Counted from the stretch's first letter, positions 8,493 to 13,290 are shown. The stretch is DNA of 64,000 nt from an uncultured delta proteobacterium (GCA_963740905.1 CAVUFY010000011.1:124926-188925), one strand, 5' to 3'. A program made the numbers and translations. Notes: generated by a model from the letters alone, not told the origin.

Positions 8493-8609
8493 GAGGGCCA
8501 GGGTAAAGCGGCCGCGCGCGGCTATGGCTTCGGCAGACAGCTCGATGATCAAATCCGCTGCACTGCTGATCAGGCCTTCTTGGTCCGAGTAAACGGTAAT
8601 CCTGGACGT
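8493..8609 (-). pseudogene. pgl: 6-phosphogluconolactonase (pgl) N-terminal fragment with the start codon apparently mutated (ACG)
   Basis: The minus strand reads GGAAGGAAAC-ACG-TCC...: (T)SRITVYSDQEGLISSAADLIIELSAEAIAARGRFTLAL, a typical Pgl N-terminus. The expected SGGSTP motif and the rest of the gene are absent. There is no ATG/GTG/TTG where the start should be. Confidence 0.45.
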
Positions 8610-8659
8610 GTTTCCTTCCCGGATAGGAGACTAGCGGGGTCCCGAAAAAGTCCTTGTTT

Positions 8660-8787
8660 GCAGGTTGCTCAAAAATGCCTAAGATGCAAGGCGTCCGAAA
8701 TCCTGAGGAGTGAGACGTACATATAAGTACGTCGCAACGACGAAGGATGAGGGCAACGCCGCAGATGGGCATTTTTCAGCAACCTGC
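8660..8787 (-). repeat. Repeat family R2 (about 125-nt imperfect palindrome), copy a
   Basis: GCAGGTTGCTCAAAAATGCC...GACGTACATATAAGTACGTC...GGCATTTTTCAGCAACCTGC. Its reverse complement is about 80% identical by eye to 38231-38355. It abuts the pgi stop codon. Confidence 0.75.
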
Positions 8788-10428
8788 TAGCGGCTCCCAC
8801 CTCTTAAGCGGCGATAGCGTCGGATGAGGGCGTTGGTGGACCCGTCATGCTTGAGTTCGGGTTCGGTCGCGCTCTCAAGCTCGGGGATGATACGCTTGGC
8901 CAGCACCTTGCCCAACTCCACGCCCCATTGATCAAAGGAGTCAATGTTCCAAATAGCGCCCTGGGTGAAGACATTGTGTTCGTAGAGGGCCACCAGGCTG
9001 CCCAATGTCCTGGGCGACAGACTCTCGGCGAGAATGACATTGGTGGGCCGGTTGCCTTCGCAAACCCGAAACGGCGTCTGGAACGCCGGGGAACCCTCGG
9101 CGGTTAATTCCTCGGCGGTCTTGCCGAAGGCCAGCGCCTCGGCCTGGGCGAACAGGTTGGCCATGAGCAGGTCGTGATGGTGGTCCAGAGGGCTGAGCGG
9201 CCGGCAAAAACCGATGAGGTCGCAGGGGATCAGCTTGGTGCCCTGGTGGATAAGCTGGTAAAAGGAGTGCTGACCGTCGGTGCCGGGCTCGCCCCAGATG
9301 ATGGGACCGGTCTCATAGCTCACGGATTGGGCCTCCAGGTCCACGTGCTTGCCGTTGCTTTCCATCTGCAACTGCTGCAGGTAGGCGGGAAAGCGTTCCA
9401 GATAGGCGGCGTACGGCATGATGCCTATGGTTTGGGCGCCGAAGAAATTGTTGTACCAGACCGTCAAGAGGCCCATGAGCGCGGGGAGGTTCTTCTCGAG
9501 GGGGGCCGTGCGGAAGTGCTCATCCATGGCATGAAAGCCGGCCAGCATCTCCTGAAAGTTCTCCGGCCCCACCGCCAGCATGGTGGAAAGCCCGATGGCC
9601 GAGTCCATGGAGTAGCGACCGCCGACCCAGTCCCAGAAGCCGAACATATTGGCGGTATCGATGCCGAATTTCTGAACCTCCTGAGCGTTGGTGGACACCG
9701 CCACGAAGTGCTTGGCCACGGCCTCTTCGCGGCCCAGCCCCTTGACTACCCATTGCCGGGCGGTCTGGGCGTTGGTCATGGTCTCCAGCGTGGTGAAGGT
9801 CTTGGAGGAGATAACAAACAGGGTCTCGCCGGGGTCCAGGTCGTGGGTGGCTTCCGTGAAGTTGGCCCCATCCACATTGGACACGAAGCGGAAGGTCATG
9901 GCGCGTTCGCTGAACGGACGGAGCGCCAGGTAGGCCATCTCCGGCCCCAGGTAGGAGCCGCCGATGCCGATGTTGATCACGTTCTTGATGCGTTTGCCGG
10001 TGTGGCCTTGCCATTGACCGCCGCGAACCCGGTTGGCGAAATCCGGACATCTTGTCCAGCACCGCATGGACCTCCGGCACCACGTCGCGGCCGTCCACCT
10101 GGATGGACGAACCTTTGGGGGCGCGCAAGGCCACGTGCAGCACGGCCCGGTTTTCGGTGAGGTTGATCTTTTCACCCCGGAACATGGCGTCCCGCCTGGC
10201 TTCCACGCCGCGTTCCCTGGCAAGTTGCAGGAGCAGCCGGATGGTCTTGGCCGTGATGCGATTCTTGGAGTAATCCAGGAAGAGACCGGCGCCTTCTGCA
10301 GAAAAACTTTCGGCCCGGGCGGGGTCGTCGGCAAAGAGCTGCCGCAGATGCGCGCCCTTGATCTCCTCATAATGCGTCTTGAGTGCCTGCCAGGCCTGGG
10401 TTTCTGTGGGTCTTGGCGTATCGCTCAT
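8787..10428 (-). pseudogene. pgi: Glucose-6-phosphate isomerase, interrupted by a 1-nt frameshift near 10039-10047
   Basis: The N-terminus (track ORF 9520..10428) reads [22 protein letters not shown]...VHAVLDKMS. The remainder is in track ORF 8787..10370: [35 protein letters not shown]...GKHV...[11 protein letters not shown]. Deleting one G from TCCGGATTT gives [11 protein letters not shown]. Confidence 0.85.
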
Positions 10429-10624: not shown

Positions 10625-12007
10625 GGCTTGCTTTCCGGAGGCCGCGGGTTGAGCCACGGCCCGTGTTTGCCGATGAGCTGGTAGGCTTCTTCCGGTCCCC
10701 AGGTTCCCGGCTCGTAAGTATACAAAGGCGTCACGTTGCCCAGGATGCTGTCCACCACCCGCCATTGGGCCTCGACGCTGTCCTCCCGGGCAAAAAGCTC
10801 GGCAGAGCCGCGCATGGCATCGCCCAGCAGACGCTGATACGGTGGCATGTCTTCGGCAGCCTGGCGGACGAAGGTCAACTCCACGTCTTGACCCGCCATC
10901 CGTTCTCCCGGTTTTTTCACCCGCAGTCCCATGGAGAGGGTGATGTCCGGACTGATACGCATCCGCATGTGGCTGGAGAGGACCGGCACGATTTCTCCGA
11001 AGGTCTCACGGGGCGGACGCTTGAACTCAACCATCACCTCCGTGGAGGTCAATGCCAACTTTTTACCGCAGCGTATGAAGATGGGAACTCCGGCCCAACG
11101 CCAGTTGTCGATGGCCACCTTCACGGCCACGAAGGTCTCCACCGTGGAACCGGAGCTGACCCCGGGCACAGAAAGGTAACCGTTATACTGGCCGCGCACC
11201 ACGTCCCCTGGCTTCAGGGGGGTAATGGCTTTGAACAACCGCCCCTTTTCATCCCGGACTGATTCGTGGTCATCACCGGTGTGCGGATCCATGGTCAGGC
11301 TGGCTAGGATCTGCAGCATGTGGTTTTGCAGGACGTCCCGAATGGCGCCGGCCTCGTCGTAGAACTTGCCGCGGTCCTCCACGCCGAAGTCTTCCGCCAT
11401 GGTGATCTGAATACTGCGCACGTAGTGGCGATTCCAGATCGGCTCAAAAATGGGATTGGCAAAGCGAGTGTAGAGGATATTCTGGACCGGCTCTTTGCCC
11501 AGATAGTGGTCGATACGGATAGATGGCCTCTTCCGGGAAGTACTGGTGGAGGATTTTGTTCAACTCCTGCGCGGAGGCCAGATCCCGACCGAAGGGTTTT
11601 TCAAGCACTACCCTGGCGTTGGTGCCGCAGCCCGATTTGGCCAGCCCCTCGGCCACCTCGACGAACATAGTTGGGTGGATGGCCAGGTAATACAACGGCC
11701 TCTCTGCCTTTCCCAATTCCTGGCGCAGTTTTTGATACGTCGCCGGGTCATTATAGTCGCCCTGAACGGCATGCAACAGTCCCGTCAGCTTCTGGAAAGC
11801 CTCCTGATCCAGGGTGCCATGGTGCTCCAGGCTATCCTTGGCGCGCTCCTTGAGCTTGTCAAGGGACCCGGACCGGGACACCCCGATAATGGGCAGATTA
11901 AAGCCTTCTTTCCGGATCAGCCCTTGAAGCGACGGAAATATCTTCTTGTAGGCCAGGTCTCCGGTGGCGCCGAAAAAGACCAGTGTATCCGAAACTGGAG
12001 CCCCCAT
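10621..12007 (-). pseudogene. zwf: Glucose-6-phosphate 1-dehydrogenase, interrupted by a 1-nt frameshift near 11512-11521
   Basis: The N-terminal ORF 11444..12007 carries VFFGATGDLAYKKIFPSL and EKPFGRDL. The C-terminal ORF 10621..11421 carries VRSIQITMAEDFGVEDRGKFYD. The bridging RIDHYLGKEPVQNILYTRFANPIFEPIWNRHY is readable only after removing one C from TATCCGTATC. Confidence 0.85.
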
Positions 12008-13038
12008 CAGCCACCTCCTGCCTTGTCCGGGCTCTTTTCCAGGTGGCCGCCGAATTCATAGCGCATGGCCGACATGAGTTTGTCCGCAAATTCATCTCCG
12101 CCCCGGGAACTGAAGCGGCTGAAGAGCGCCGAGCTGATAACCGGGGCGGGAACACCTTCGTCCACCGCGGCTTGCACCGTCCAGCGTCCTTCGCCCGAAT
12201 CGGATACCCGGCCGGCGAATTTAGACAGGTCCGGGTTGGCTAGTAGCGCGCTGGCCGTCAGATCCAGCAGCCAGGAGCCAATAACGCTGCCGCGCCGCCA
12301 CACTTCGGCCACATCCGGCAGATGGAATTCGTATTGGTACAACTCGGGATGACGCAGCGGCGTGGTCTCCGCATCCACCTCCTGCTGACGCTTCCCGATG
12401 TCGGCATTCTTGATAATATTCAGGCCTTCGGCGAAGGCTGCCATGATGCCGTATTCGATGCCGTTGTGGACCATTTTGACAAAATGCCCGCCGCCGTTGG
12501 GGCCGCAGTGCAGATAGCCGTTCTCCGCGGGGGTCGGCTCCCCTGCGCGGCCAGGGGTGCGCGGGGCCTCGTCCACGCCGGGCGCCAGGGCCTTAAAAAT
12601 GGGGTCCAGGCGCTGGACAGCTTCGACCTCGCCGCCGATCATCATGCAGTAGCCCCGTTCCAGCCCCCAAACCCCGCCGCTGACCCCCACGTCCACATAT
12701 TGGATGCGTTTTTCCTTCAAAGCGGCGGCCCGGCGAATGTCGTCGTGGTAGTAAGAGTTGCCGCCATCTACCACGATGTCACCCGGTTCCAGCAATGAAG
12801 TCAGGTCGTCCAGCACCTTATCCACTGCGGCGGCCGGCACCATCAGCCATACGGCCCGTGGCTTGTCAAGCATTCTGACGAACTCCTTCAGGTCGGTTGT
12901 GCCTTTGGCGCCTTGGTCCACTGCCTCCTTTATGGATTCTTCATGGCGGGCATAAACAACACACGTGTGGCCGGCCTTCATCAAGCGGGTTGCCATGTTG
13001 CCACCCATGCGTCCCGCGCCGATCATTCCCAATTGCAT
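12007..13038 (-). CDS. gnd: 6-phosphogluconate dehydrogenase, decarboxylating (short, about 343-aa form)
   Basis: AAGGAGG precedes ATG 13038. The protein carries MQLGMIGAGRMGGNMA (Rossmann), GGNSYYHDD, and GHFVKMVHNGIEYGIM. Its TGA overlaps the zwf ATG (ATGA at 12005-12009). Confidence 0.85.
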   Translation of the reverse strand: MQLGMIGAGRMGGNMATRLMKAGHTCVVYARHEESIKEAVDQGAKGTTDLKEFVRMLDKPRAVWLMVPAAAVDKVLDDLTSLLEPGDIVVDGGNSYYHDDIRRAAALKEKRIQYVDVGVSGGVWGLERGYCMMIGGEVEAVQRLDPIFKALAPGVDEAPRTPGRAGEPTPAENGYLHCGPNGGGHFVKMVHNGIEYGIMAAFAEGLNIIKNADIGKRQQEVDAETTPLRHPELYQYEFHLPDVAEVWRRGSVIGSWLLDLTASALLANPDLSKFAGRVSDSGEGRWTVQAAVDEGVPAPVISSALFSRFSSRGGDEFADKLMSAMRYEFGGHLEKSPDKAGGG

Positions 13039-13059
13039 GGCAGTCCTCCTTTTGAAAAG

Positions 13060-13290
13060 ATGGGTTCTCCTGCGATCAGCACTGTCCCAGGCCGTCAAAC
13101 AAAGGGACACTTCGCTGCCGGTGCCGATAAGGATCAGATCAGGCTGGCCATCCGGTGGATCGGCCAGCACATAGGCTCCCTTGGCCAAACCGCCGGTCGC
13201 GGTTGATCCATTGAGGGTCGTCAGGGTCGTGGCGCAGGAACCGTTGCCATCAAGAATCACTCTGCTACAACCCGCGCGGCGTAGCATCAT
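13060..13290 (-). pseudogene. tkt: Internal fragment of transketolase, fused in frame upstream of gnd
   Basis: The upstream extension of track ORF 12007..13290 reads ...TGGLAKGAYVLADPPDGQPDLILIGTGSEVSLCLTA. This matches the conserved Tkt block (E. coli TktA, from memory: [28 protein letters not shown]). No N-terminal 500 aa or C-terminal domain is present. Confidence 0.55.

Follow-up and report, generated by a model that had tools for sequence, protein, structure and literature searches.

Deletions have eroded a ten-gene pentose-phosphate operon around gnd, zwf and pgi in an uncultured delta proteobacterium

The subject of this report is a run of sugar-metabolism genes on the minus strand of a 64,000-nt stretch of DNA from an uncultured delta proteobacterium (GCA_963740905.1 CAVUFY010000011.1:124926-188925), which we call the window. 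An earlier note on this stretch had described an eroded oxidative pentose-phosphate operon of six genes in which only gnd was intact, and all of the elements that it listed proved to be present close to where it had placed them and to be statistically significant. We found that the locus is a once tightly coupled operon that has been eroded by genuine deletions, which are not attributable to base-calling; the junction of one of them, between HAD and tal, is common, base for base, to an independently assembled relative. We observed directly the map of homologies, the deletions, the junction common to two assemblies and the pattern of selection. The explanation that we favour for them, and to which, taken as a whole, we would give an even chance of being right, is that a larger operon was pruned to a core that works, and that the one-base insertions seen in zwf and pgi are likely not established pseudogenising mutations.

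The window holds a collinear remnant of a ten-gene operon

We compared the window, by blastn and tblastn, with L081, a 5.3-Mb contig (ENA ERZ25039519, contig_19176) whose gnd is 89% identical to that of the window. In L081 the operon is uninterrupted and runs glk-tkt-gnd-zwf-HAD-tal-pgi-DUF2090-pgl-rpiA, with protein lengths of 714 (tkt), 460 (zwf), 224 (HAD), 360 (tal), 543 (pgi), 304 (DUF2090), 251 (pgl) and 237 (rpiA) amino acids. Positions 13249-8239 of the window, on the minus strand, form a strictly collinear remnant of this operon, with the same gene order and orientation, the same zwf/HAD coupling, and 84-92% protein identity for gnd, zwf and pgi. The window differs from L081 in lacking tal and DUF2090, in having mere scraps of tkt, HAD, pgl and rpiA, and in carrying one +1 insertion each in zwf and pgi; the six genes that are deleted or reduced here are all complete in L081. 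The six-gene operon of the earlier note thereby becomes one of about ten genes, with tal and DUF2090 among the losses and rpiA among the scraps. Neither tal nor DUF2090 nor glk left any trace within the 64-kb window in these searches. From tkt to rpiA, about 5.5 kb of 10.5 kb is gone (about 53% of the L081 operon), and the losses amount to at least seven deletions, whose junctions we numbered J1 to J7. One continuous block (13068-10545, minus strand) contains gnd, zwf and the first 34 codons of HAD.

In the region 5′ of the former tkt start, toward a divergent HlyD/EmrA gene, positions 13362-13558 (minus strand) show 86% nucleotide identity to positions 4525-4726 of a second relative, L082, where this block sits between HlyD and an intact tkt. 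In the window, the block would probably still provide the operon promoter. A simple scan for sigma-70 promoter and terminator consensus sequences gave no minus-strand site at 13362-13558, nor upstream of gnd or the tkt scraps, and Rfam and tRNA scans of the window returned nothing.

Gene scraps and deletion junctions

All that remains of tkt is residues 45-63 and 554-591 of 714, and no full-length transketolase (TIGR00232), with its N-terminal, pyrimidine-binding and C-terminal domains, is present at the locus. The in-frame tkt fragment upstream of gnd described in the earlier note was confirmed as residues 554-591 (13085-13203, minus strand; tblastn over 13203-13090, 84% identity, E 2.6e-14); it matches Pfam Transketolase_C_1 at positions 1-30 and is bounded by J1 and J2. 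It is in frame with a 427-amino-acid open reading frame (ORF; 12007-13290, minus strand), of which the last 343 residues are gnd and the first 84 include the weak Transketolase_C_1 match. To this we add a second scrap, from the N-terminal part of tkt and out of frame with the downstream ORF (residues 45-63; 13193-13249, minus strand), which was found by tblastn against L081 tkt (94.7%, E 6.7e-7) and by blastn (94.6-96.4% to L081, L082 and a further relative, L084). Within tkt, J1 removed 1481 nt at an imperfect microhomology (CCGCG[A/G]CC), and J2, at the 3′ end of the gene, removed about 310 nt.

The HAD-hydrolase remnant (10523-10624, minus strand) overlaps the zwf stop codon through ATGA and has as its orthologues the HAD genes in the L081 and L084 operons (tblastn against L081 HAD, 73.5%, E 3.9e-12; 90/102 nt match the L084 gene). 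Its homologous part comprises codons 1-34, with the ORF running on to 10499, and the fragment described in the earlier note is thereby confirmed. We rejected the idea that a second HAD gene in the window (3311-4024) is the translocated rest of this fragment; that gene is full length, is a distinct paralogue and has an orthologue in L082. At the HAD-tal deletion (J3), 1.7 kb of the L081 sequence is missing and is replaced by about 100 nt of filler, of which we mapped 10442-10522 (minus strand). The same junction and filler, the latter at 79% identity, occur in L086, a 6.3-kb contig from an independent sample (JGI 3300056996, Ga0568866_0043824) whose gnd is 94% identical to that of the window. 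Since J3 is common to both, it is shared by descent and is no assembly artefact. This, together with the intact arrangement from tkt through tal in L081 and L084, upholds the statement in the earlier note that the truncations cannot be sequencing errors.

For pgl, an N-terminal fragment with ACG at its start had been proposed, and both points stood: residues 1-46 lie at 8494-8609 (minus strand) with ACG at 8609-8607 where L081 has ATG (tblastn over 8606-8457, residues 2-46, 66%, E 2.5e-13; blastn 83.6% to L081 16874-17001). The gene is not, as had been thought, simply truncated, since its last 20 codons (residues 232-251) survive in another frame at 8435-8494 (minus strand; tblastn 80%, E 2.5e-5; blastn 88% to L081 17579-17645), which makes the loss an internal deletion. 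That deletion (J5) removed 578 nt at a short imperfect match, with GTCCGG in both parent flanks and CCGG kept in the window. No full-length pgl domain with a start codon (TIGR01198) is present; what is left is two scraps in different frames, with ATG changed to ACG. Homology is thus significant for each of the tkt, HAD and pgl fragments proposed earlier. Between pgi and pgl, DUF2090 is replaced by a palindromic repeat, R2 (J4), and beyond pgl two deletions (J6 and J7) left an internal remnant of rpiA (residues 85-126; 8239-8349, minus strand; tblastn 50%, E 1.7e-5; blastn 85% to L081 17897-17957). The rpiA scrap overlaps, on the opposite strand, the 3′ tail of a GH65 gene (8180-8288, plus strand), about 36 amino acids rich in proline and arginine beyond the Pfam C-terminal domain. 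This overlap suggests that the rearrangement joining the two gene clusters also replaced the original GH65 end.

gnd is intact and zwf and pgi carry one lesion each

The gnd gene (12007-13038, minus strand) encodes a short-form decarboxylating 6-phosphogluconate dehydrogenase of 343 amino acids with Pfam NAD_binding_2 and 6PGD domains. It is one uninterrupted ORF that matches TIGR00872 (gnd_rel, the NAD(+)-type short gnd) over profile positions 1-297/299 with 424.8 bits against a cut-off of 297.2, in agreement with the earlier note. The in-frame position of the upstream tkt scrap is incidental, as gnd is served by an AAGGAGG ribosome-binding site of its own.

The zwf gene (glucose-6-phosphate dehydrogenase; 10621-12007, minus strand) is full length but for one extra T at about 11519, and its Pfam halves fall in two frames, G6PD_N in ORF 11444-12007 and G6PD_C in ORF 10621-11421. 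The window reads ATCTA[T]CCGT where L081, L082, L086 and another relative, L083, read ATCTACCG, and the alignments contain a single 1-nt gap. The insertion had been placed correctly before the active-site motif RIDHYLGKE: the frame shifts directly in front of it, and as sequenced no uninterrupted frame runs through the motif. With the extra base removed, zwf scores 469.7 bits against TIGR00871 (cut-off 400.6). Similarly, pgi (glucose-6-phosphate isomerase; 8787-10428, minus strand; blastn span to L081 10441-8800) is full length but for one extra base at about 10044-10046, within TCCGGATTT, where the window reads TCC[G]GAT, L081 TCAGAT and L086 GCCGAC; the alignments show one 1-nt gap against L081 and one against L086. 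Pfam PGI positions 1-81 lie in ORF 9520-10428 and positions 75-486 in ORF 8787-10370. As sequenced, pgi has no one-frame match to NF001211; with one base removed it reaches 839.6 bits (cut-off 492). Each of the two genes carries exactly one lesion, and removal of one base from each restores full-length proteins free of stop codons. The earlier note had read ATGA overlaps at both gnd/zwf and zwf/HAD; we found the overlap at zwf/HAD alone, the gnd/zwf junction being TGATG, a 1-nt overlap.

Related loci keep gnd and zwf and have lost other genes

A protein search with gnd revealed a close family at 80-100% identity (about 100 homologues at 80% or above), and the homologues of this clade are labelled Deltaproteobacteria or Syntrophobacterales. 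Across the clade the operon shows 88-94% protein identity. At a greater distance, a gnd search of genome contigs gave matches of at most 70% identity from many phyla, with generic synteny such as gnd-zwf-HAD-pgi in one of them (L009).

Of the relatives, L086 forms one collinear block with window positions 13073-8793, from gnd to the pgi stop, at 92.1% nucleotide identity. Its zwf (461 amino acids) and pgi (545 amino acids) are intact despite the same HAD-tal junction and filler, so that its reduced operon, tkt-gnd-zwf-(HAD scrap)-pgi-(pgl scrap), differs from that of the window in having both genes uninterrupted. It keeps a 3′ segment of tkt and a different pgl scrap (residues 133-154), and it is without R2. 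In L082, the HlyD-MFS-OEP flank is 92.9% identical to the window at the nucleotide level with no gap in 4452 nt, and the operon is 92.1% identical; an intact tkt-gnd-zwf is followed by a 5.6-kb deletion that reaches an inverted rpiA paralogue. Positions 9376-9383 of L082 join the zwf end to this paralogue and correspond to window positions 10565 and 4927. The L082 arrangement looks like that of the window minus the beta-phosphoglucomutase (beta-PGM)-family gene, GH65, the pgl and rpiA scraps, R2, pgi and most of the HAD scrap, and a tal scrap (residues 283-357) lies at its positions 10338-10562.

The other relatives have been rearranged in ways of their own. In L083, a tkt scrap (residues 656-710; 9846-9995) stands directly 5′ of gnd-zwf and beside a 3039-amino-acid Tc-toxin gene. 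L085 has tkt-gnd-zwf, and tkt in both L085 and L082 is intact across the segments deleted in the window; L084 has tkt-gnd-zwf-HAD-tal and likewise contains every one of those tkt segments, though with the tkt match breaking near residue 632. On a further contig, P0123, the order is narGHJI-gnd-zwf-dxs-nuo. The invariant core is gnd-zwf, kept in every relative compared despite their differing rearrangements, with pgi kept in addition in L086; zwf is intact in L082, L086, the P0123 contig and the available parts of L083 and L085. This universal retention of gnd and zwf points to selection on the pair. Comparison with syntenic relatives thus bears out the deletions described in the earlier note, but zwf is intact in the relatives and pgi is intact in L086.

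Purifying selection on the core and neutral drift of the scraps

We counted nonsynonymous and synonymous codon changes per branch in a three-taxon test of the window, L086 and the outgroup L081. On the window branch the nonsynonymous:synonymous counts were 2:13 for gnd, 3:13 for zwf and 1:15 for pgi (4:28 for zwf and pgi together), and on the L086 branch they were 9:40, 12:35 and 12:40, respectively. In these counts, with one lesion in each gene, nothing indicated that selection on zwf and pgi had relaxed along the window branch. Purifying selection has kept gnd-zwf(-pgi) essentially up to the present.

The scraps behaved differently. The HAD remnant is 83.7% and the filler 79% identical to L086, with three small indels, against 92-93% for gnd, zwf and pgi. 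The divergence of the HAD scrap (about 0.2) equals the synonymous divergence, dS, of the flanking genes (0.21-0.34), and that of remnant and filler together corresponds to a dS of about 0.21-0.23, so that the scraps are neutral and the genes constrained. The neutral HAD scrap has an indel-to-substitution ratio of about 1:10. At that ratio, two real indels in 3 kb would be expected alongside some 15 additional nonsynonymous changes, and the likelihood of seeing two indels jointly with four or fewer such changes has its maximum at about 0.05. Were the frameshifts real, inactivation would have to be confined to the final few per cent of the window branch.

The window sits on a terminal branch that is shorter than those of its relatives by a factor of two to three (13-15 synonymous changes vs. 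35-40 for L086), and its gnd, zwf and pgi sit near the clade centroid when set beside L081, L082, L083, L084 and L086. A population-consensus effect, recombination or a slower rate could each account for this.

Frameshifts in the window

We found four frameshifts in the 64-kb window, in zwf, pgi, a GH15 gene and an XhoI-type nuclease, all of them single +1 insertions in otherwise clean ORFs. Neither core-gene insertion was present in the relatives checked (L081, L082, L083 and L086 for zwf; L081 and L086 for pgi). The frameshifted 187-amino-acid zwf product is on record solely for the source contig, which is weak evidence, as the search missed known close full-length relatives. A pattern scan of metagenomes around the zwf site, with the insertion allowed or not, returned one locus, L084, without the insertion. 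A suspected fifth frameshift, in adjacent cupin ORFs (62879-63852), was rejected, since the two are distinct genes set 2 nt apart. The other pairs of same-strand ORFs that lie in different frames also proved to be separate genes (an anti-sigma kinase and a STAS gene; a glyoxalase and a rubredoxin-like domain protein), as did a VTT-domain protein beside an ORF without a family match.

Weighing the alternatives

From the sequence comparison we infer that the zwf and pgi insertions may be consensus or assembly errors or unfixed variants, about as likely as that they are real. Indels are the dominant residual error of consensus sequences in long-read metagenome-assembled genomes (MAGs), and are worse at low coverage (PMC8103633). 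The size of the 276-kb source contig and the contigs of its relatives suggest that it is of long-read origin, and strain-level structural heterogeneity at the locus, with L082 and L085 differing within one sample, could locally degrade the consensus. Insertions make up about 43% of small indels in bacterial pseudogenes (PMC6054270), so that four out of four under real mutation has p ~0.03-0.05; this is unlikely but possible, and is for that reason also to be entered on the other side. Several further observations weigh against error. Two of the four frameshifts lie in the adjacent zwf and pgi, which make up about 5% of the coding sequence (p ~0.016), and three of the four lie in an 11-kb sugar island (p ~0.017), the clustering to be expected if a pathway really were decaying as a whole. 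The 4452 nt of efflux genes aligned with L082 are free of indels, and long genes amounting to about 26 kb are unbroken, which argues that the general indel error rate is not high. The T in zwf is, on the most parsimonious reading, inserted outside a homopolymer. All of this would fit frameshifts that are real, with zwf and pgi very young pseudogenes, gnd the one intact gene and not yet hit, and loss of the oxidative branch nearing completion at this locus, an account to which we would give a little less than an even chance. It would be in keeping with the real deletions in the same operon, including the recent window-specific ones in tkt, with the break in the neighbouring GH15 gene, and with the failure of a search of the 64-kb window to find a second copy of zwf, pgi, pgl or tkt. 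Were nine point lesions to strike an operon of 10.5 kb, gnd would be missed with a probability of about 0.39, so that nothing further is required to account for its survival. What speaks against real frameshifts is the 4:28 ratio on the window branch, the presence of exactly one lesion per gene, each a +1 insertion, the intact zwf in every relative with data and intact pgi in L086, and the record of the zwf frameshift for the source contig alone in an incomplete search. The decay of tkt, moreover, did not relax zwf or pgi, which weakens the argument that the genes fell one after another like dominoes. The statement in the earlier note that only gnd is intact and the oxidative branch lost is right as to the lesions, which are present as sequenced, but it is not secure, as it rests on two contig-specific +1 insertions.

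The earlier note had also raised the possibility of a decaying horizontally acquired copy. That the operon was acquired recently and is redundant with a resident pathway elsewhere in the genome we regard as improbable. The operon is about 6 GC points above its flanks, the best gnd matches outside the clade reach at most 70% identity and are scattered over many phyla, and the gnd-zwf module occurs in differing neighbourhoods among the relatives. However, the GC excess is found in all relatives, so that any transfer would predate the clade, and other genes of the window are equally GC-rich (e.g., PaoC, 0.62); GC content was therefore rejected as a sign of recent transfer, being non-discriminating. 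The near-equal identities of flank and operon in L082 (92.9 and 92.1%) are consistent with shared descent since the split and with an acquisition that was not recent, and purifying selection has been persistent since that split. A plasmid collection held no close match to the locus. An ancient transfer into the clade is possible. Less credible still is that the deletions themselves are assembly artefacts, such as would arise where sequences of mixed strains were collapsed or chimerically joined. In favour of this, co-occurring relatives do vary in structure here, L082 and L085 being two different versions from one sample. Against it, a separate assembly, made from a different sample, contains the HAD-tal junction as well, the remnants are collinear, at least one junction (J1) shows microhomology, and the relatives carry truncations of their own that are different. 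Finally, we entertain, tentatively and with some doubt, the possibility that an uncultured clade is dismantling a ten-gene operon in parallel down to a gnd-zwf core, and that the window is the first case in which zwf and pgi have just been knocked out. If true, the loci would record, as a natural time series, how a free-living lineage from the environment loses a pathway.

A proposed history of the operon

On the explanation that we favour, a ten-gene pentose-phosphate operon was pruned stepwise, by at least seven deletions, at least one of which (J1) lies at imperfect microhomology, to a gnd-zwf-pgi core, related lineages having been pruned in parallel. The HAD-tal deletion is an old step that preceded the split from L086; DUF2090, pgl and rpiA went separately in different lineages; and the tkt deletions, specific to the window, look recent. 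The remaining core is predicted to convert fructose-6-phosphate to glucose-6-phosphate and on to ribulose-5-phosphate with NAD(P)H. The product of zwf, 6-phosphogluconolactone, hydrolyses spontaneously, and because of this the lactonase step would be dispensable, and with it, probably, pgl. The convergent GH15/beta-PGM/GH65 cluster is placed so that it may feed glucose-6-phosphate into the core, and its rpiA may supply the isomerase lost from the remnant. The locus would then be a working, streamlined oxidative module, or would have been one until just now, and not a graveyard with a lone gnd.

Among known systems, the actinobacterial pentose-phosphate operon tkt-tal-zwf-opcA-pgl, e.g., of Corynebacterium glutamicum, has its genes co-transcribed with tkt first. 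The ancestral form represented by L081 resembles it in having tkt first among its pentose-phosphate genes and in the inclusion of zwf and pgl, and differs in having a short NAD-type gnd (TIGR00872) together with pgi, a HAD hydrolase, DUF2090 and rpiA, with no opcA among the called genes of the L081 operon. All of the proteins are from well-known families, and the process is ordinary, already known, textbook reductive evolution. Bacterial pseudogenes decay with a deletional bias (Kuo and Ochman, 2009, PMC2817411; Kuo and Ochman, 2010, PMC2916853; Danneels et al., 2018, PMC6054270), and the locus shares with such decay its deletion-dominated loss, its neutrally drifting remnants and the small indels in its scraps; zwf and pgi, in contrast, show no relaxed selection and are not yet pseudogene-like. 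The four isolated 1-nt indels in clean ORFs resemble the frameshift artefacts of long-read MAGs, a familiar pitfall for annotation (PMC8103633), but here the events cluster in sugar genes and the 4.4-kb flank has none.

For annotation, we would describe the locus as a reduced operon in which tkt, HAD, pgl and rpiA persist as pseudogene scraps. Metabolic reconstructions of this MAG should not treat zwf and pgi as absent unless reads bear out the two insertions. Across the six related loci compared, gnd-zwf was always kept and tkt, HAD, tal, DUF2090, pgl and rpiA were lost repeatedly, which marks pgl, HAD and DUF2090 as dispensable accessories of this type of operon. The window is a neat but unsurprising case of deletion-driven operon streamlining, and the seven-locus series is mildly instructive. 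As to method, +1 frameshifts in MAGs can be tested without reads, by setting branch-wise nonsynonymous:synonymous counts against the indel-to-substitution ratio of a neighbouring neutral remnant.

Neighbouring genes and repeats

Convergent with the operon remnant is a plus-strand sugar cluster (641-8288) comprising GH15, a HAD paralogue (3311-4024), rpiA (4203-4934), a beta-phosphoglucomutase-family hydrolase (4935-5747) and a GH65 phosphorylase (5925-8288). Its HAD and rpiA are distinct paralogues of the operon copies (74% and 65% protein identity to L081, respectively). The GH15 glucoamylase-like gene (836-2891, plus strand) has an extra C at about 2612-2616 (GGCC[C]TCCC) and is otherwise clean through its C-terminus; a relative, P0248 (86% identical), aligns in one frame over residues 1-394 and then, over residues 383-482, in the following frame. 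The remaining frameshifted gene, an XhoI-family restriction endonuclease (55817-56555, minus strand), has its +1 at about 56290 (TTCTTC[T]CGT), with PF04555 positions 1-59 and 59-189 in two frames. An intact N4/N6 DNA methylase (54900-55814, minus strand) adjoins it, and the locus is either an orphaned methylase or another consensus error.

The R2 repeat of the earlier note, which stands in place of DUF2090 (8660-8787, about 128 nt), is a real palindromic element. It is self-complementary, with a predicted RNA fold of -60.9 kcal/mol (z = -6.5), and is absent from the loci of all relatives compared. A second copy in the window (38230-38355, 81% identical) is flanked by a gene for outer-membrane efflux on one side and one for an RND adaptor on the other. 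R2 could be a miniature inverted-repeat transposable element (MITE)-like or repetitive extragenic palindromic (REP)-like element, or a terminator. The window also has another family of intergenic repeats, whose members measure about 165-215 nt and are in part self-complementary, at 29503-29671, 44803-45017 and 49118-49278, with halves at 688-767 and 3006-3122. These halves flank GH15, the right half 5′ of the gene and the left half 3′, which is the reverse of a simple insertion into one element.

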